The notes under the pieces were generated by a model. It made no database searches and was not told the DNA's origin. It saw only the letters and a list, made by a program, of their open reading frames with translations. This document shows positions 3,348 to 39,213 of a DNA stretch of 43,887 bases, piece by piece (the stretch's first letter is position 1; every line of letters starts with the position of its first letter). A program made the translations under genes and the position numbers. This DNA is from a virus (Duplodnaviria > Heunggongvirae > Uroviricota > Caudoviricetes). The DNA lies in IMG/VR virus record IMGVR_UViG_3300032007_000048, positions 64,001 through 107,887 of that record; one strand, 5' to 3'.

Positions 3348-5543
3348 TTATTCAGGTAATTCTCCAAAATTGGCATCAAGTGTTATAGGAATTATGTTAC
3401 CGTTTTCTCTTAACAAAGTAAGTGCAGGTTCATTAGCAACATTTGCTGAAATTGTATATGGTTCATCAGCAATTGATTTTCCATCAACCTCATCAATTTT
3501 CTCATCAAGTGCTTGTTCAGCCGCAGTAGCCCTGTCAATTTCCTCAAACAAAGCGTTTTCAATAGCGTCTTCCCTTTCTTTAGCCCTTGCTTCCTCAGCG
3601 TCAATATTGTCCTGAAGTTCCTCATCGGCTGCGATTCTCTCAGCGGTCTCAGCACTTAGTCCGTCCCATAGTTCCTCATCAGCGGCAATCCTATCAGCGA
3701 TTTCTTGGGTCAAAGCACTTTCAATCTCATTTTCTCTTTCAGTTGCCCTCTCAGTCTCAGCGTCAATATTGTCCTGAAGTTCCTCATCGGCTGCGATTCT
3801 CTCAGCGGTCTCAGCACTTAACGCATTCCATAATTCTTCTTCCGCTTCTTGTGCCCTCTCAGTCTCAGCCTCAATCATTTCCTGTAACATAGTGTCACCA
3901 CTGATTCTTGCGGCTTCCTCAGCGTCAATATTGTCCTGAAGTTCCTCATCGGCTGCGATTCTCTCAGCGGTCTCAGCACTCAACGCATCCCATAATTCCT
4001 CAATAGCCTCATCAAACTCTTTTCTTAGTGCCTCAGAAGTGTCCATTAATATCTGTGTTCCATCCTCTTCCTCATATACTCTCCATTCATGGTATCTGTC
4101 ATCAGTGGTTTCAGGGTCGTTGTCATAATCAACAATAACAATAGAGTCACCAGGAACCATTTGTTTCTTAATCCACTCTGAACCGTCCCATTCGTTGACG
4201 AAAAAAATACCTTTAGTTGTGACAGCATCCTCAAGGTTTTCCCAATCAGGTGAGATTACACCACCAACCTCATTGAAACCAATGTTGATTGATGTCCAAA
4301 CCTGTGCGTAATCTTTTTCCTCATCAGTAATAAGGACACAAGGAACAGTATGACCCATGATGCTTTCATACTCTTTGAATTCCATGTCCTCATAGGTGTA
4401 GTCCTTAACAAGCCTTAATGAAAGTCTTGAACTTGGTTTTGAACCTTCCTGAAGAACTTTTCTTGTGTCAAATGAGAATGTTCTTGTATAATAGTTTTTC
4501 TGTAATTTGGTTTTTGCCGCAGTTGCGGTTGGTGTGTCAGTCCAGAAAGATGCGACCTGACCAACACCCTCAATATCGGAGTCCTCATCACCAATGATTG
4601 GTCCTCTTGAACCCTCACCATATCCACAAGGGACTATGTGTATGGTTGACACGGAACTACCTGCGTCATCAGGCAAATTGTCCTCACCACCGACAGGTTT
4701 GCCATCCTCAGTCTCTTCACTTTTTTCCCATGAGGAGATTGACTTGGCTCTTGCACCTGCGTCTTTACCTGTCCAAATATTAATGTCATCAATGTCATGG
4801 CAAACAATATCATCACACTCATCTGAGCAATAGTCAGGACATTCGGCTGCGATAAGCATGTTATCCCAGTCTTCCTTGGTCGGAACCCTCCAATCCAATC
4901 CTTGTTCAGCAAGCAAACATTTAAGTTGCTCAATTTCCTCATAAGTGTACAACCTACCAAACTTGGTAAACAACTCTTTGGTGACAATTCTTGTGCCTTT
5001 TGAATAAACACCCTCAGGTATGACATTTTCCTTGTCAGTCAAATCAATGAAGTATTTGGCAGGTGCGTATGTACCTGTCCTCTCAACCTCTGAAAGTCTT
5101 AAAGGATTGATTACCCTACCGTCACCGTTAATAGTACCATCAGTGGCAACCTTAACTGATTTACCAAGAATTTTCTTGATTTTGTCCTCAATATCTTTCT
5201 CAACAAGAAAACCGTCAACACTTTGTGTTGTGCCATCCTCAAAAGTGACAGTCAATATACCGTTTTCCTTGTCATACTCAAGAGTAAATTTTTCATCAGG
5301 AATAATGGTTTTAAGTTGCTCACCATTAAGTCTGGTTAAAATCAATTCCTTTGTGTCTTTGTTAAAATCAACTTTCTTGATGTCCATACCCCTAAGGAAA
5401 TAGAAGTTAGCGTCAATCTCACTACTGAGAAGACTACAGTTCTTGGTTCTATCACCTTTATAATCAGATACTAATTTGAAATATGTTACACCGTTTATCT
5501 CACAAAGAATATCGTTCTTCTTATTTATTAATGTATTTGCCAT
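3348..5543 (-). CDS. FISUMP (Fib_succ_major)-like domain protein with C-terminal coiled-coil repeats; probable virion fibre/adhesin
   Basis: Motifs GRLYTYEE, WRVPTKEDW, FWTDT, SLRLVKD resemble the FISUMP domain. Start moved from 5594 to ATG 5543 (MANTLINKK), downstream of a CTATTTAT motif. Confidence 0.7.
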   Translation of the reverse strand: MANTLINKKNDILCEINGVTYFKLVSDYKGDRTKNCSLLSSEIDANFYFLRGMDIKKVDFNKDTKELILTRLNGEQLKTIIPDEKFTLEYDKENGILTVTFEDGTTQSVDGFLVEKDIEDKIKKILGKSVKVATDGTINGDGRVINPLRLSEVERTGTYAPAKYFIDLTDKENVIPEGVYSKGTRIVTKELFTKFGRLYTYEEIEQLKCLLAEQGLDWRVPTKEDWDNMLIAAECPDYCSDECDDIVCHDIDDINIWTGKDAGARAKSISSWEKSEETEDGKPVGGEDNLPDDAGSSVSTIHIVPCGYGEGSRGPIIGDEDSDIEGVGQVASFWTDTPTATAAKTKLQKNYYTRTFSFDTRKVLQEGSKPSSRLSLRLVKDYTYEDMEFKEYESIMGHTVPCVLITDEEKDYAQVWTSINIGFNEVGGVISPDWENLEDAVTTKGIFFVNEWDGSEWIKKQMVPGDSIVIVDYDNDPETTDDRYHEWRVYEEEDGTQILMDTSEALRKEFDEAIEELWDALSAETAERIAADEELQDNIDAEEAARISGDTMLQEMIEAETERAQEAEEELWNALSAETAERIAADEELQDNIDAETERATERENEIESALTQEIADRIAADEELWDGLSAETAERIAADEELQDNIDAEEARAKEREDAIENALFEEIDRATAAEQALDEKIDEVDGKSIADEPYTISANVANEPALTLLRENGNIIPITLDANFGELPE
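3594..3980 (-). repeat. Three identical 63-nt copies at a 162-nt (54-codon) period
   Basis: ctcagcgtcaatattgtcctgaagttcctcatcggctgcgattctctcagcggtctcagcact starts at 3594, 3756 and 3918; encodes SAETAERIAADEELQDNIDAE. Confidence 0.9.
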
Positions 5544-5758
5544 ATTCTTAAATGTATATAATTTATTTTCTTTATAAATAGTGTGTAATTTCAATAAATT
5601 AACATTTTAGACCACAAAAAAAGAAAAAGATTATGTAACCTTTTGATAATATGACAATATTTCGAAAAATATGGGGCTTTTTTATGTAAGGTATAGTGAT
5701 TTTACTTGTTGTTGTGATATTTATTGGTATAATAATAAATAAAATTATTAGATTAATC

Positions 5759-6763
5759 ATGGGTCAATTCGTACATAAATTCAATACAATCGCCGAATAT
5801 AACACCGCAAGAAAAGAAAAATATAAGCGACCTTGGACTTCATATGTGATTGAAAATAAAGAGGTGAAGTTTAATAAAACCGAGGAAGAAAAAGAAAGGG
5901 AGAGAAAACTTCAAACACCTTTGACATTTGAAATAACGGATGGTGGTGATATTTATTGGAAAGCATATAGTACTGCTTTAACTAAAACCATTGAATATAA
6001 TTTAAATGAAAGCGGATGGACATCTATTACAAGTAATAACGGCTCATCAGTACCAAGTATATCAGTTGTGTCAGGTGACATTATTCAATTCCGTGGAAAT
6101 AACACCACATATGGTACTGACACTTATTATAGTACATTCAGTGGTAGTACGGCACAATTTAAGGTCAAAGGAAATATAATGTCCTTGACTAACTCAACCA
6201 ATTTCAGTACACTAACCACATTATCAAACATTTACACATTTCGTAGTTTGTTTTACAACTGTACAGGTTTAACTGATGCAAGTGAATTACTGTTACCTGC
6301 AACAACATTAGCAAATAATTGTTATGTTAGCATGTTCTATGGTTGTACAAGCCTTACTACTGCGCCTGAGTTACCTGCAACCACATTAGCAAGAACTTGT
6401 TATGGCAGTATGTTCGAAGGTTGTACAAGCCTTACTACCGCACCTGAGTTACCTGCAACTACATTAACAGAAGGTTGTTATTATATGATGTTCGAAGGTT
6501 GTACAAATCTTATCCAAGCACCTGAATTACCTGCCACTACATTAACAAAAGATTGTTATGTTAGCATGTTCTATGGTTGTAGGAAACTTAATTATATAAA
6601 ATGTCTTGCCACTGATATATCAGTAAGTGCTTGTACATTCTATTGGGTAAGTGGTGTGGCATCAACAGGTACATTTGTCAAGGCGGCATCTATAACATCT
6701 TGGCCAACAGGTACACATGGTATTCCAGAAGGTTGGACAGTACAAGACGCTCAAGATATTTAA
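5759..6763 (+). CDS. BspA-type leucine-rich repeat protein
   Basis: Four 26-aa repeats LPATTL..CY..MF.GC..L..APE. Start moved from GTG 5696 to ATG 5759 (MGQFVHKF). Confidence 0.8.
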   Translation: MGQFVHKFNTIAEYNTARKEKYKRPWTSYVIENKEVKFNKTEEEKERERKLQTPLTFEITDGGDIYWKAYSTALTKTIEYNLNESGWTSITSNNGSSVPSISVVSGDIIQFRGNNTTYGTDTYYSTFSGSTAQFKVKGNIMSLTNSTNFSTLTTLSNIYTFRSLFYNCTGLTDASELLLPATTLANNCYVSMFYGCTSLTTAPELPATTLARTCYGSMFEGCTSLTTAPELPATTLTEGCYYMMFEGCTNLIQAPELPATTLTKDCYVSMFYGCRKLNYIKCLATDISVSACTFYWVSGVASTGTFVKAASITSWPTGTHGIPEGWTVQDAQDI

Positions 6764-6784
6764 AAGGTAAATAGTGAATACAAT

Positions 6785-6819
6785 AAAAAAGAGAGGTAAG
6801 TATTTACCTCTCTTTTTTT
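6785..6819. terminator. Bidirectional intrinsic terminator
   Basis: A6-GAGAGGTAA-gtat-TTACCTCTC-T-run between convergent genes. Confidence 0.85.
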
Positions 6820-8845
6820 AACATAAGAAATCGTTGTTTATTATACTGAAATTAACAAAACCGTTATATATTCTAAAATCCTTTATGTCACCAATAAATG
6901 TGCCGCAGAAAGACTTTTCTATTGGAAATATATAATTTGAAGTCCAATAATAATCAGGTAAGATTGTTTCAAGTAATCCTTGTGTACCACCACCAAGTGA
7001 GATACTGAATGGAACAGCCTCTTGTTTCTGATAGTCATCATTTAGTTCCCTGAAATTAAATTCATTCAGTTCCTTACTGATGAATTTAAGAAATCCGTTT
7101 ACATAAAAGTATAATCTCATTTTTCTTTTTCCCTTGTATCTGTCGCATTTTTCAGATGATGGGTTTATTATGACAATTCTAATATAAACAGTGTTCCACT
7201 CATCAGGTTTAATTATTCCGTCTTTTGAATACTCCTCTTCAACGGTATAATGTTGGTCATTATCAGCGTCACAGTCCAAAACACCATATCTATAACCAAT
7301 AGCACCGTTTTCGGTTATTCTTAAACCGAATGTATTGTTTTTAATGTCCTTATAAATGTTATATGGTATGGCGTTTTCTTCCTGATATTTATAAATGTCA
7401 TGTACTGTGTAACCGGTTGAGGTTCTGTTCATAATAGGAAAATAATTTATATTACTCCAATCTTGTCTACCTGTCAATGTCACTTTGGTGTTCTCAATCC
7501 AATTTTTTGTCGTGAAACCTTCAGGTGTCCTGTCGAACATGAGGAACTTGTTATCTGACTCTATTTGATAGTAGCCCTTTTTGGTAATCAGGTGTCCAAA
7601 AGTGTCAGCGATTTTTTTCTCATCAATATCAGCGTCATCAGCGAAATACCCCTCTTCAATTGACTTGTCACTGTCAGGGCAAATATCCTTGTGTGAGTAC
7701 TCATCTCCGAAATAATCCGCACAGTCAGGTTTTTCAGGCTTAGGTTGTGGTTTAGGACAAGAGTCACAACAGTGTGAGTCTTCCTCATATTTGTAATCAT
7801 ATAGACTTGACACATGCCAATCATAATCAGGTATGCTTGTTATATGACATTCACATCCGTCATATGGGTATGGTTTATATTTTGGTTTCGGTTTAGGCTG
7901 TGGTTTGGGTTCCTCTTTCTCTTCCCAACAGAAATCCATGCTGTCCATGTCAATATAATTGTCATCGAAATAAGAAATAGGATTTCTTCTCTCACACTCA
8001 ACACTACCGTCATTATAATAGTCCATATGTACAGGTCGCTCATCTTCTGTCAAATCAGTAAGATAATCCTTAACATGAACGATTTTGTTTTGTAAGTCAA
8101 CCGTATCACCACTTTCGTCACAAGTATATGGGGCAAAATAACCGTCAGTCATGACACTTTCCCTTTTAAGGGTCTCTGTGACCGCACTGTCCATTTTGTA
8201 CAAATTAGAGAATTTGTTTTCGGCTCTTGTACCCATATAGAAAAACAAACCGTTATTCTCAGGATGTATATGATTAACGGTTCTCACACCGATTTCATAA
8301 TCAGTTCTTGGTCTTAACTTGAAATAAAGACCCCATTCGGTATCAGGACCATTTGGAAGTGTTTGATATTTAAAACCGTGAAGTTTGTAAAATCCTTGAT
8401 AAAAACCGCCTTGGAAACTAATATATTTCTCATCATCATTATAGTACATGGGATATTCAAAATCCAATGTATTACCGGTTACCGGTGACAAGAAAAACCT
8501 TGTGTCACCCTCAGGTATGTCATATGTGCTTCCTGTTAATATATTAAGAAAGTCTTGGTTCGAAATTCTGTCTTTCCTAAAATGGATAAGGCCGTTGTCA
8601 ATACCGGTGAAACCAATGTCTTCCATCAGCACACCTTCGTTAACGGCATCTTGCCATTTAACTGTTGAGTAAAGAATACCATCTTCTATGTTCAATGATG
8701 AAAAATCGGCAAGTAATTGGTTATCCACATTAAAACACCCATAAGCCTCACCCCTGTAAAGCATATAGTCCCAATATTCGTCCCTATATATTTTACAGTC
8801 AAGACTTCTTGTGCTGTTATTTTTTATATTTTGATATGTTAACAT
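6818..8845 (-). CDS. Hypothetical protein, probable virion structural protein
   Basis: 675-codon ORF, likely ATG 8845, preceded by CTATTTAT; internal Pro/Lys/Cys-rich linker. Confidence 0.6.
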   Translation of the reverse strand: MLTYQNIKNNSTRSLDCKIYRDEYWDYMLYRGEAYGCFNVDNQLLADFSSLNIEDGILYSTVKWQDAVNEGVLMEDIGFTGIDNGLIHFRKDRISNQDFLNILTGSTYDIPEGDTRFFLSPVTGNTLDFEYPMYYNDDEKYISFQGGFYQGFYKLHGFKYQTLPNGPDTEWGLYFKLRPRTDYEIGVRTVNHIHPENNGLFFYMGTRAENKFSNLYKMDSAVTETLKRESVMTDGYFAPYTCDESGDTVDLQNKIVHVKDYLTDLTEDERPVHMDYYNDGSVECERRNPISYFDDNYIDMDSMDFCWEEKEEPKPQPKPKPKYKPYPYDGCECHITSIPDYDWHVSSLYDYKYEEDSHCCDSCPKPQPKPEKPDCADYFGDEYSHKDICPDSDKSIEEGYFADDADIDEKKIADTFGHLITKKGYYQIESDNKFLMFDRTPEGFTTKNWIENTKVTLTGRQDWSNINYFPIMNRTSTGYTVHDIYKYQEENAIPYNIYKDIKNNTFGLRITENGAIGYRYGVLDCDADNDQHYTVEEEYSKDGIIKPDEWNTVYIRIVIINPSSEKCDRYKGKRKMRLYFYVNGFLKFISKELNEFNFRELNDDYQKQEAVPFSISLGGGTQGLLETILPDYYWTSNYIFPIEKSFCGTFIGDIKDFRIYNGFVNFSIINNDFLC

Positions 8846-35649: not shown

Positions 35650-35793
35650 AAAAAGTTTGTTTTTTTTTTTACATTTATTTATATATTAACAAAAGAGACA
35701 TCCTGAACGGTTAGTAAGGTCCCCTTGGGCGCGTTTTCGAATATGCAAGTAGCAGGGTTCGACTCCCTAATACGATGGGTTCCACAAAGGGGT

Positions 35794-35942
35794 AAGAATA
35801 ATAGGAAGCCGTACTTCCGAATTTACGCTTGTGGACTATCCAACTATGGATGACAGACTCAGCAATGAGGCACTAAAAAGTAGTGATAGGTTGAAGCAAG
35901 AAATTGAAACTTATAGGTTTTTATAAGTTTCTTTATACGGTG
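35794..35942 (+). ncRNA. Orphan copy of the TnpB guide-RNA (omega/reRNA) scaffold
   Basis: 35794-35904 aligns without gaps to 38546-38656 (97/111 identical by hand); both are followed by a hairpin and TATACGGTG; no tnpB ORF here. Confidence 0.82.
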
Positions 35943-35987
35943 GTTATGGTTTTTCGCCATGGTTTTCCTTATAAATCATGGCTTCAT

Positions 35988-36059
35988 GCCTCCTTAGTAT
36001 AAAGGTTATTATAACTGATTTGTAATCAGTAGATGTTGGTTCGATTCCGACAGGAGGCT
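35988..36059 (+). tRNA. tRNA-Thr(TGT)
   Basis: ACTGA-TTTGTAA-TCAGT. Confidence 0.92.
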
Positions 36060-36083: not shown

Positions 36084-36860
36084 ATGAAAATAACTGAGTC
36101 TCAATTAAAAACAATAATATTTGAAAGCACAAAAACTGTGCTTAATGAAATAAAAGAAAACAACAGGAAGTCATTTCCTTCTGACGAAAGGATTAATGTT
36201 TCACATTATTCAGAAAATTCTTATTTGGTGCCAATAACTGAAACAAATGCCAAAAGGATGCTTGCAAGACATAGTGATAATGGTTATATTGTTATTAGTC
36301 CATGTAGGTCAAATCCTGAGGAATTAGGTATTAACCCTAATGACCCCAATGTTGAAGAAAAAAGCAAACATATTAATAACGAAAGAGTGAAGGATTTTAT
36401 TAATATTCTAAGAAAAAAACATCTTTCATATACACCGGTTTATGGTGGTTTTATCGAAAACCTTGGTTCTGAGACAGAAAAAAATGTTTATGAGAAATCA
36501 TTTATGGTCTATAACAGAACAACTGACGGTAATGTATTTGGAATAGATAAACTTTATGATTTCGGTATTGAAATGTCAAAAAAATATAATCAAGATTCTT
36601 TTTTATTTAAAAAGGGTAATGAAAACCCAAAATATATAACTAAAAACGGAGAGATTGATATGGAATTTGGCTCTGATGCTACTTTTAATGATTTCTCTCA
36701 GGAATATTTTACTGATTTACATAAAAATAGTGAAAAATACAAAAACAATGGCGGAAAGCCAACAAGATTTACTTTTGTTGAATCATATGTAAATCCGCCA
36801 TGTGGCTCAATTAGTTCAAGAGCACCAAGAAGTGCAAAAGGTGAAGTTTTTATATATTAA
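36084..36860 (+). CDS. Hypothetical protein (DUF3293-like), paralog of 26525..27202
   Basis: YIVISPCRS, YGGFIEN...EKSFMVYN, KYNQDSFLF; N-terminal ITESQLKTIIFEST motif. Confidence 0.65.
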   Translation: MKITESQLKTIIFESTKTVLNEIKENNRKSFPSDERINVSHYSENSYLVPITETNAKRMLARHSDNGYIVISPCRSNPEELGINPNDPNVEEKSKHINNERVKDFINILRKKHLSYTPVYGGFIENLGSETEKNVYEKSFMVYNRTTDGNVFGIDKLYDFGIEMSKKYNQDSFLFKKGNENPKYITKNGEIDMEFGSDATFNDFSQEYFTDLHKNSEKYKNNGGKPTRFTFVESYVNPPCGSISSRAPRSAKGEVFIY

Positions 36861-36892
36861 TTTTTTCCTCCTTGTCATTTCTTTGACAAGTT

Positions 36893-37253
36893 AAACACAA
36901 ACTTGTTCTATTTTTAGCATAGAACCTTGCCAAGTGCGTCAGGTAATAGCATGGAATAGTGTACATATGTCCATGTAATATGAGACCACAACGAACCGAT
37001 GGGATGCTGACATATCTTGTACTTAGGAACATAATACATAAATCCTAAGAGATGCACCTTGCCAACAGGTGGGTAAAACCTTGTAAAGAGAGATAGTGAT
37101 GAAAAACACTCTGCCGAGGCCAATGAGATAATATCAATAAAGGTGGTACAGCATCTGAAGTAGTTTAAAAGGGAAGTAAAACACTCCAAAGGTAATGCAA
37201 TCCTCGTAAAGCCGAGGTTCCTCAGTCGCAGTGATGTAGTAAAGTTTGTGTTT
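36893..37253 (+). ncRNA. Unidentified ~360-nt structured RNA candidate
   Basis: 12-bp closing stem AAACACAAACTT/AAGTTTGTGTTT, many internal stems, G.U pairs favour the + strand. Confidence 0.55.
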
Positions 37254-37421
37254 ATTTTAAAAAAAAAATAGTTTATTATCTGGGGGCTTCTAAACAATTT
37301 TTTCTCTTACAGGGTTATTAACAGTTAAATAAAATTCTAAGAAAAAGTCTTAATAATCAAGATTTTTTCAAAACATAAACTATTTATAAAAGGATTGGGT
37401 TATAAACCCCATTGTTTGATA

Positions 37422-38678
37422 ATGATATTAAGAACAGTTAAAATAAGGTTATATCCTAATAAGGAACAGGAACAAACACTTAACAAAGTGCTTGGATGCT
37501 ACCGATTTGTCTATAATCAAATGCTTGCACATAAACAAAAGGCTTATAATGCGGACAAAACTAATGTTGGTCTTTGCGAATTATCAAAATTCTTTCACGG
37601 AGAACTACTGAAAAACGAACAATATTCTTGGTTGAAAGAACAAAATACCAAGGTAATGAAACAAGCAATAAGACAGATGTTGTCTGCTTATGATGGCTTC
37701 TTTACTCTTGGTAAAGGGTTTCCTAAATTCAAAACCAAACACAACGACAATTCAGCATTGTTCCCTTATGAAGCAATATCTAAAACAAATACTTTTAAAA
37801 CTAAACATATCTCCTTAACTAAAAATCTGAAAAACCTGAAGTTCCGTTGTTCAAACTTATATTTCAATAGATTGAAAACCTATAAGGACAATATAAAGTG
37901 TGCTACCTTATCGAAAACCAAGAGTGGTAAATACTACTTATCTGTCCTTTTATCCATGAATGAAGAAGAATTCAGACAATTCAGACACACAGGTAACAGA
38001 GTTGGCATTGACCTTGGTGTAAAGGATTTTGTAATTACTTCTGATGGGGAAGTATTTGAAAATAAACACTTCTTTAAAAAAAGTGAAAACAAAATCAAAA
38101 AGTTACAAAGACAATTGTCCAAGAAAGCCAAAGGCTCAAACAACAGAAACAAGGCAAGAGTTAAACTTGCAAAAGAATTTGAACGTTTAAACAATCAAAG
38201 AATTGATTATGTTCACAGTGTTGTCAATTCATTATTGGAAAATTATGATTATGTTTTCATGGAGAACCTGAATGTTCAGGGGATGCTAAAGAATCATAAG
38301 TTATCTAAAGCAATACAAGAGGTTGGTTTTTATGCATTTAAAAATACACTAAAGAACAAAGCAATATTGAATAACAAGTTTGTGATTGAAGTTGACCGAT
38401 GGTTTGCAAGTTCAAAGACTTGTCACTGTTGTGGTTATGTTTACAAGGGACTGACACTTGACGAACGATTGTGGGATTGTCCTGAATGTGGAGAGCACCA
38501 TGATAGGGATTTGAATGCTGCGATTAACATTTTAAAGGAAGGAGAAAGAATAATAGGGAGCCGTACTCCCGAATATACGCTTGCGGAGAAACCAACTGTG
38601 GATGACAGACTCAGCAATGAGGTACTAAAAAGCAGTGTTTCGTTGAAACAAGAAATGGGAACTAAGAATTGTTCATAG
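37422..38678 (+). CDS. tnpB: RNA-guided endonuclease TnpB (no transposase in the window)
   Basis: MILRTVKIRLYP, RuvC VGIDLG / FMENL / DRDLNAA intact, zinc finger; start moved to ATG 37422; CTATTTAT at 37380. Confidence 0.92.
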   Translation: MILRTVKIRLYPNKEQEQTLNKVLGCYRFVYNQMLAHKQKAYNADKTNVGLCELSKFFHGELLKNEQYSWLKEQNTKVMKQAIRQMLSAYDGFFTLGKGFPKFKTKHNDNSALFPYEAISKTNTFKTKHISLTKNLKNLKFRCSNLYFNRLKTYKDNIKCATLSKTKSGKYYLSVLLSMNEEEFRQFRHTGNRVGIDLGVKDFVITSDGEVFENKHFFKKSENKIKKLQRQLSKKAKGSNNRNKARVKLAKEFERLNNQRIDYVHSVVNSLLENYDYVFMENLNVQGMLKNHKLSKAIQEVGFYAFKNTLKNKAILNNKFVIEVDRWFASSKTCHCCGYVYKGLTLDERLWDCPECGEHHDRDLNAAINILKEGERIIGSRTPEYTLAEKPTVDDRLSNEVLKSSVSLKQEMGTKNCS

Positions 38679-38704
38679 TTTTTCTTAGATTTCTATATAC
38701 GGTG
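38546..38704 (+). ncRNA. Cis guide-RNA scaffold overlapping the tnpB 3' end
   Basis: Homologous to 35794-35942; position typical of TnpB omega RNA. Confidence 0.8.
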
Positions 38705-39213
38705 TTTTAGGTTCTAATAAAGCAACTGAGGACAAGATTAAACTGTTTCCCAACATTAGGGACTGTGTTAGAGTTTGTGAAGATATAAAGGACAAGGTTA
38801 AAACTGTTACAGGAAAAAATGTGCTTGTTTGTGTATATGGTGATGGTTGTTTCCATAGTCCAATGATTAATGGTATTTTAGGTACTTCCATCAATGAATT
38901 TGCTGACCCAATTACAATGCCAGCTTATACTGACCCTGAAATATTTGAGTCAACACCTAATGAGATTAAAATTAAGGCATTTGCCGATGATAAGTATAAA
39001 GAGTTACATGGTACTGAACTTGATGATGCCATTAGGAATGAGGTTAAAGAAAACAATAACCATAATTTGGTAGGAAACATGACATCACAAGGTACCACAC
39101 CAAGGCAATATAGGGATTTGATTGCGTCACTTTGCGATTTGGTTAGTGGTTCAGGACAGAAAGGTACACCAATAGTTTTTATTAAAAATTACTTTGGAAC
39201 TTACGCCAGTTAA
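38698..39213 (+). pseudogene. C-terminal fragment of a coenzyme F420-0:glutamate ligase-like protein
   Basis: Open from YGVLGSNKATED through VYGDG, SQGTTPR, SLCDLVSGSGQKGTPIV; begins at the tnpB element end; N-terminal part not seen in the window. Confidence 0.55.

Follow-up and report, generated by a model that had tools for sequence, protein, structure and literature searches.

What is the role of a TnpB guide RNA scaffold that has no tnpB gene of its own and sits in the tRNA array of a huge gut phage? The scaffold, hereafter the orphan, occupies positions 35794-35941 (+ strand) of the window, which is the whole stretch of 43,887 nucleotides that was analyzed. This stretch spans bases 64001-107887 of an IMG/VR virus record that is 107,887 bases long and has an estimated completeness of about 30%. 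Public phage records that match the scaffold DNA are Prevotella Lak megaphages, and the region is contained in sequencing runs of gut samples from cattle and sheep. The region has 16 tRNA genes, and the orphan is positioned between a conserved tRNA-like remnant and a tRNA-Thr gene starting at 35988. A tnpB gene at 37422-38678 is located 1.5 kb downstream and carries a second scaffold at its 3' end; these two are the only copies of the scaffold family in the whole 108-kb contig, and the orphan is thus present once. The original prediction, which was made from the sequence of the window, had described a TnpB guide scaffold among tRNAs with a guide differing from that of the tnpB-linked copy, and this description holds.

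The structure of the orphan was compared with that of scaffolds still attached to their nuclease genes. Aligning 28 non-identical copies, all of them located at the 3' ends of full tnpB genes, yielded a consensus structure of 24 base pairs, 13 of which showed compensatory changes. A covariance model (R1) built from these 28 tnpB-linked copies only, with the orphan excluded, matched the orphan over its full length (35797-35941) with a score of 147.8 bits, compared with 152.1 bits for the local tnpB-linked copy (38546-38703, + strand). The orphan keeps every one of the 46 columns that do not vary among the linked copies, even though its nearest sampled relative is only 83% identical to it. The P1 hairpin (GGAAG/CTTCC, 35804-35818) corresponds to RNAalifold columns 8-12/18-22, where three of five pairs covary among the 28 copies, and is followed by nested long-range helices (35828-35900) that surround a variable central hairpin and pair 35828-35832 with 35896-35900, 35836-35840 with 35885-35889 and 35844-35847 with 35880-35883. 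A 3' hairpin read from the sequence (35906-35931) has a perfect 10-bp stem (35906-35915/35922-35931) and leads into the conserved end TTTATACGGT; the equivalent hairpin varies in sequence across the family and retains its pairing. All helices of the orphan are intact. The full-length R1 score, the invariant columns and the intact helices together indicate that the orphan is a full member of this omegaRNA family, with homology to the right end of tnpB and a conserved structure supported by covariation. Some family members (L010 7981-8160, L034 481-663 and L040 5119-5301) have an extra hairpin of about 30 nt inserted in the 5' half of the scaffold.

Comparing the two local copies directly shows how they differ. 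Over the 111 nt of an ungapped comparison (35794-35904 versus 38546-38656) there are 14 differences, corresponding to 87.4% identity, and 12 of these fall in six base pairs of the consensus structure. Five pairs (35806/35816, 35836/35889, 35837/35888, 35839/35886 and 35846/35881) are changed on both sides with pairing kept, the sixth (35832/35896) reads U.G in the orphan but C.A in the tnpB-linked copy, and the remaining two differences (35823 and 35871) are unpaired. When 14 differences were placed at random, not one of 1,000,000 trials affected both partners in at least five pairs. The 87% match with mostly paired differences that had been reported is therefore real. Downstream of the matching region, both copies continue with a hairpin that differs in sequence and then TATACGGT before they diverge, as had been described, with the correction that the conserved end of the scaffold is ...ATACGGT and the G that follows already belongs to the flank or guide. 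The absence of a tnpB remnant 5' of the orphan was likewise confirmed, as the homology to TnpB found by tblastn begins no earlier than residue 372-374, already inside the scaffold.

The paired differences had also been taken to mean that the scaffold was kept by compensatory changes after it was orphaned, and this part of the prediction did not survive comparison with the family. Helices of the orphan type (CTATC/GATAG and ACTA/TAGT) already occur at the 3' ends of intact tnpB genes in Lak-A1 (L003), L016, L028 and others, and the helices of the local tnpB copy recur in L013. Since the orphan-type helices are linked to tnpB elsewhere, the two copies must represent two lineages that diverged while both were tnpB-linked. 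Moreover, TnpB proteins 66-72% identical to the local one are found with either version, local-type helices in L013 and orphan-type helices in L016 and L028, and thus the differences lie within what the clade tolerates. As judged from these alignments, the compensatory changes are evidence of a family-wide constraint on the RNA and not of upkeep after orphaning; the orthologous orphan pairs in the sample (L043/L044, L036/54/60/78 and L066/88) are too similar to reveal constraint that acted after orphaning.

That the orphan was inserted among the tRNA genes is revealed by a contig from a sister phage, L089, in which a neighboring protein is 98% identical. L089 joins 35793 directly to 35939-35942, with a GGT that is ambiguous at both ends, so that its empty site reads ...AAAGGGGT followed immediately by GGTCATGG..., also written as ...AAAGGGGT followed by GGTCATGGTTTTTCGCC.... 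An identical 148-base skip is present in contigs of runs X22 and X23, which come from another study. The orphan is thus a precise 148-base insertion beside GGGT (35790-35793, + strand), which is the predicted target-adjacent motif (TAM) of the insertion. These boundaries of 148 bases, together with the R1 score, exclude an origin of the scaffold as an arm of an attachment site. GGGT is found at the left junction of the orphan, of the local tnpB element and of ten other independent insertions, 12 in all, and the right end of the scaffold is ...CGGT or ...CTGT. Viral and metagenome contig collections were searched for more alleles of the orphan site and yielded the L089 contig only; a further candidate, L090, was discarded as an unrelated, GC-rich chance match.

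The empty allele also explains the guide. The predicted guide of the orphan is the flank directly 3' of the scaffold (35942-35961, + strand), and apart from one mismatch in 20 bases it matches the sequence to the right of the empty junction in L089, so that the left motif and the 3' flank together reconstitute the unoccupied target. The mismatch, T in the orphan and C in L089 at 35945, is at the fourth base of the guide and hence TAM-proximal, and L089 is the one empty allele that is fully sequenced. TAM-proximal mismatches usually block cleavage. The guide differs from that of the tnpB copy because the insertion site is different and not because it was reprogrammed, as had been supposed; a guide matching the orphan's own empty site, which is what L089 reveals, was an outcome that the original prediction itself had listed as speaking against it. 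The prediction had further proposed that the guide is aimed at host or rival-phage DNA. The rival half of this proposal stands insofar as a sister phage is matched, and the host half does not. When the guide was scanned for exact matches against 596 Gb of bacterial sequence, with each prokaryotic species represented by one genome, 19 matches in unrelated phyla were returned, where we estimate about 9 by chance. The one match in Bacteroidales that was inspected (L093) lies in a coding stretch, VVMVFR, which we take to be nuoK-like; it has TGGT rather than GGGT adjoining and carries the C variant. A host target was therefore rejected, as the matches look like chance or codon convergence and the one that was inspected lacks GGGT. 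Within the window, the guide has no second match.

If the orphan acts in trans, it needs a compatible nuclease, and the gene at 37422-38678 (+ strand) is predicted to encode one. Its 418-residue product matches the Pfam families OrfB_IS605, Cas12f1-like_TNB and HTH_OrfB_IS605, exceeds the cut-off of the NCBIfam guided_TnpB model with 305 bits and aligns with ISDra2 TnpB (E 5.7e-51) with the RuvC Asp/Glu/Asp residues and the zinc-finger cysteines conserved, all of which is consistent with an active RNA-guided nuclease. The left end of the element (37316-37421, + strand), delimited by the junction with site A of L089, is directly preceded by GGGT (37312-37315) and bears a TAAC(A/T)GTTAA motif that is also present at the left ends of other elements and of several miniature copies. 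At the other side, the linked scaffold (38546-38703) overlaps the 3' end of the gene and is followed by its guide (38704-38723, + strand), which is identical to site B of L089. The stop codon of this tnpB is TAG (38676-38678); Lak-type relatives read TAG as sense, with many of their tnpB genes containing in-frame TAGs, and read-through here would add 13 residues encoded by the 3' hairpin of the gene's own guide RNA. TAG ends 5 of 30 long frames in the window and thus may be a true stop. Two further tnpB genes in the contig (window 16119-17210, - strand, and G000:C1:21163-22263) are 36% identical to the one studied here, and their right ends do not match the scaffold family.

The tnpB element has also left its mark on the surrounding genome. 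Site B in L089 is preceded by GGGGT and lies inside an intact, 382-residue F420-ligase-like gene (L089 6249-7397). The window retains a C-terminal remnant of this F420-ligase-like (CofE-like) gene (38689-39210, + strand), which is truncated at the right end of the tnpB element and matches positions 97-218 only of Pfam F420_ligase, and the N-terminal part is absent from the whole contig. Relative to L089, the left flank of the element corresponds to site A (...ACAGGGT, window 37312-37316) and the right flank to site B (GGGGT followed by GTTTTAGG..., 38700-38704). In L089 the two sites are separated by 1.77 kb (5100-6890) comprising a tRNA-like gene, a 275-residue gene and, from its N-terminus onward, two thirds of the F420-ligase-like gene, and this segment is found nowhere in the contig. 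Since sites A and B both read GGGTGTTTT, the arrangement suggests that the element inserted first and that a deletion next to it, between copies of the motif, came later. An IStron, in which a group I intron with tnpB splits the F420-ligase-like gene and the ORF at 36084-36860 serves as the upstream exon, was considered and rejected, since that ORF is unrelated to the N-terminus of the F420-ligase-like protein, no group I match was found and L089 reveals an insertion with a 1.77-kb deletion. Neither tnpB nor the scaffold was found in the L089 contig. As the guides of the orphan and of the tnpB-linked copy both match L089, both would be directed at the sister genome, with about 3 kb between their sites. 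Upstream of tnpB and outside the element, a conserved, non-coding and strongly structured stretch (36861-37310) is shared with L089 (4778-5109); in contigs of three runs, one of them an RNA-library contig with a depth of 638, a different sequence of 16 bases takes the place of its central part (37088-37192). This stretch may be an abundant unnamed RNA.

The orphan and its presumed nuclease can be compared with several known systems. Stand-alone omegaRNAs occur in bacteria and work in trans, but their role in biology is still given as unknown (PMC10691335). The orphan has no adjacent effector and a compatible effector elsewhere in the genome, and on the strength of its sequence we consider 35794-35941 (35941 being the last base of the scaffold) to be a stand-alone omegaRNA gene with no tnpB and no recognisable left end. 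As summarized in PMC10691335, the trans-acting omegaRNAs of Altae-Tran et al. 2021 share with it a mobilized scaffold with neither effector nor transposase beside it, a guide that corresponds to the flank and a compatible effector encoded in the same genome. The orphan differs from the systems described in that summary in being located in a huge phage rather than a bacterial chromosome, in lying co-directionally in a tRNA array and in being a single copy in 108 kb, for which we infer a function in trans.

A second group of known systems retains transposons by means of TnpB. Meers et al. in 2023 reportedly described homing or retention by TnpB for transposons of the IS605 and IS607 families. 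As in TnpB homing and retention (Meers et al. 2023; Zedaveinyte et al., 10.1101/2023.11.20.567912), the guide here would be transcribed from the right end and target a TAM plus flank equal to the unoccupied site. TnpB cutting of empty donor sites leads to recombination that restores the element, and thereby the transposon is retained (10.1101/2023.11.20.567912). The CboIStron, with TAM TGGG and a scaffold end, UCGG, that imitates the motif, is particularly similar in its G-rich motif (GGGT here) and motif-mimicking end (...CGGT here, ...UCGG there) (10.1101/2023.11.20.567912). The present case departs from IS605 and IS607 homing in that the contig encodes neither type of TnpA and the orphan lacks a left end. 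Without a left-end motif, the orphan as it stands should not be movable by a transposase, and with TnpA missing as well, it would spread only by cut-and-copy between co-infecting genomes.

The original prediction had likened the scaffold to IS607-type elements and RAGATH-18 RNAs, and neither assignment was supported. The G-rich motif with a shared junction core (GGGT in 12 insertions) and the motif-mimicking end are traits of the IS607 type, whereas neither the protein profile nor a neighboring serine recombinase supports it. The IS607_TnpB profile NF038280 gave 162 bits against a cut-off of 350, and the IS200_TnpB profile NF038281 gave a higher score, 341 bits, against a cut-off of 425. Neither a serine recombinase (Resolvase domain) nor a Y1_Tnp domain was found in the 108-kb contig, which covers about 30% of the genome, and the resolvase genes of two complete relatives, Lak-A1 and G004, are not adjacent to any tnpB. 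By protein profile, the TnpB is nearer the IS200/IS605 type than the IS607 type but passes only the general TnpB model, and solo-tnpB element is the name that suits the element best. With RAGATH-18 (RF03064), the core helices and the motifs CUUGUGGA...UGAAGCAAGAA can be aligned along all 71 positions of the model, but the match of the orphan core (35828-35902) scored 30.2 bits against a gathering score of 44.9, a threshold that none of 12 family loci reached, and relative to RAGATH-18 the phage scaffold is extended by a 5' hairpin, a hairpin in the center and another at the 3' end. Miniature derivatives of IS200/IS605 elements (PATE- or MITE-like) are resembled by some family members (L039, L049, L061 and L066), in which the left-end motif is joined directly to the scaffold. 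The orphan of the window differs from such derivatives, which have both ends and multiple copies: it has no TAAC(A/T)GTTAA upstream and is the only orphan in the contig. The possibility raised earlier that it is simply one of many MITE copies is thus not borne out.

Scaffold-only copies are not peculiar to this window. Pattern scans of IMG/VR detected at least 84 scaffold copies in large phage contigs, which were classed by tblastn. Among the 84 matches listed, about 35 follow a full tnpB, about 24 consist of a whole scaffold with no more than about 30 nt of upstream tnpB sequence, a few are intermediate and two are cut inside the scaffold (L056 and L059); overall, there are about 27 scaffold-only copies to about 35 linked ones in the huge-phage contigs among these matches. 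Truncation points lie within about 40 nt of the 5' edge of the scaffold in 19 of 26 cases among the matches listed (binomial p ~1e-23, assuming uniform breakpoints and independent copies), and because several orphans may share one event, the true significance is lower and still strong. Orphans of the main subfamily scored 106-162 bits with R1, which is the range of most linked copies, and in a leave-one-out comparison orphans deviated from the invariant columns no more than linked copies did. Four complete or nearly complete genomes had the following numbers of linked and orphan scaffolds: 4 and 4 in G002, 4 and 1 in G003, 1 and 0 in G004, and 3 and 0 in Lak-A1. Across the four genomes in which scaffolds were paired with TnpB domains, every genome with an orphan also has TnpB genes.

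The orphans are also unevenly placed. Among the matches listed, 11 of 27 orphans lie in tRNA arrays, compared with 4 of 31 full elements (Fisher p = 0.02, with copies counted regardless of shared ancestry), and all 11 are co-oriented with the tRNAs. The clearest case is G002, an independent 388-kb phage, where three orphans lie in one 15-tRNA array (L117, G002:C1:304500-312500; scaffolds at 1765-1901, 5928-6067 and 6600-6739), all on the tRNA strand, and for two of the three scaffolds the distance to the following tRNA is 21 and 38 nt.

Expression of the orphan was assessed from contigs of a bovine metatranscriptome (X1), which do not resolve RNA ends and may include DNA. The left junction of the orphan is spanned by a contig free of mismatches (35687-35854) at a depth of 22.6, compared with 3-6 in flanking bins, and a second contig (35825-35901) has a depth of 23.2. 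Further downstream, a contig spanning 36088-38637 has a depth of 75.7 and a contig past the right end of tnpB a depth of 10.5. Such uneven depth fits RNA better than contaminating DNA, and these contigs weakly suggest that the orphan region is transcribed. The RNA-library contigs of X1 also include one extra-hairpin variant of the scaffold, with the insertion at 35845. A sigma-70 promoter scan around the orphan, a search that left promoters of the Bacteroidota type outside its scope, found none directly upstream. The conserved tRNA-like remnant directly upstream of the insertion site (window 35690-35793, L089 3762-3856) has a GGTTCGACTCC T-arm; neither ARAGORN in several modes nor Rfam called a tRNA in 35690-35790, and a lone T-arm-like hairpin is all that is recognizable there. 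Upstream of this remnant, L089 has a TATATTTG box of the TAnnTTTG type, which is that of the Bacteroidota -7 element, and similar boxes precede several orphans (L031, L032, L039, L043 and L061).

The explanation that we favor, with a probability of roughly 55%, is that the orphan is a homing or retention element which consists of a guide RNA only and relies in trans on the TnpB of 37422-38678. The orphan RNA would be transcribed together with the tRNA array and bound by this TnpB, whose own scaffold has the same architecture, single-stranded motifs and ...ACGGT end. The TnpB-RNA complex would then cut GGGT plus guide in unoccupied alleles, either those of co-infecting relatives or copies that have lost the insert, and recombinational repair would copy the insert back. 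Acting together, the orphan and tnpB-linked guides would direct cuts at two sites about 3 kb apart in a sister genome.

The main alternative, rather less likely, is that the orphan is an inert relic. A full tnpB element would have inserted at GGGT, its left end and tnpB would have been deleted later, and what is present today would be a young leftover with no function. This history would account for the missing left end and for the lack of a transposase in the contig and of a recognized promoter, and intermediate stages of decay do exist elsewhere, as L025 has a frameshifted tnpB, L027 has a 100-residue remnant, and L056 and L059 are cut within the scaffold. Another deletion adjoins the tnpB element in the same window, and the mismatch to the known empty allele falls in the seed of the guide. 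Decay is harder to reconcile with a structure and 46 invariant positions that are intact despite at least 17% divergence from every sampled copy, although a recent source outside the sample would also explain the intact structure. Nor would a relic be expected from breakpoints that cluster at the 5' edge of the scaffold across the family instead of being spread over tnpB, from orphans that as a class score like linked copies, or from the occurrence of the orphan in RNA-library contigs at a depth above that of its flanks.

An improbable alternative is that the orphan is an RNA exapted in tRNA arrays with no part in cleavage by TnpB, acting as a processing or spacer element in the tRNA transcript or as a decoy for the TnpB of a rival. 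The enrichment of orphans in tRNA arrays and their uniform orientation there, including the three in one 15-tRNA array, are what such a role would predict. The co-orientation could equally stem from an insertion bias, however, and the features that are conserved match those of tnpB-linked scaffolds exactly; every orphan in the four paired genomes co-occurs with TnpB genes, and no specific alternative activity is indicated. Least likely is a spacer-like guide reprogrammed against the host or an unrelated rival phage as a minimal CRISPR-like weapon. The two guides do differ, and stand-alone omegaRNAs that act in trans have been described (PMC10691335). However, the guide runs on directly from the flank and constitutes the orphan's own unoccupied site in L089, it has no other match in the window, and the 19 matches in 596 Gb are scattered over unrelated phyla, with TGGT in L093.

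Stand-alone omegaRNAs as a kind are already known from bacteria, and what is new here is their occurrence in a huge phage, the tRNA-array setting, the natural filled and empty alleles, and the recurrence across a family. A full-text literature search returned no description of omegaRNAs in phage tRNA arrays or of the family-wide pattern, in which scaffold-only copies are common in huge phages, cut precisely at the 5' edge of the RNA, enriched in tRNA arrays and co-oriented with the tRNAs. With filled and empty alleles in natural populations, an intact nuclease adjacent and a second guide against the sister genome, a role in homing or in competition is directly testable.

A broader proposal, which we put forward tentatively and consider doubtful at present, is that huge gut phages keep guide-only TnpB elements in their tRNA arrays as natural tRNA-guide RNA polycistrons. 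Transcription of the array and cuts by RNase P and RNase Z at the neighboring tRNAs would release the omegaRNAs, which would supply a single TnpB with several guides that target unoccupied alleles in sister phages infecting the same cell. If functional, such arrays would be a natural counterpart to engineered tRNA-guide RNA arrays, and, if the proposal is true, these phages would harbor a nuclease-free class of homing element and a form of phage-against-phage marker exclusion.
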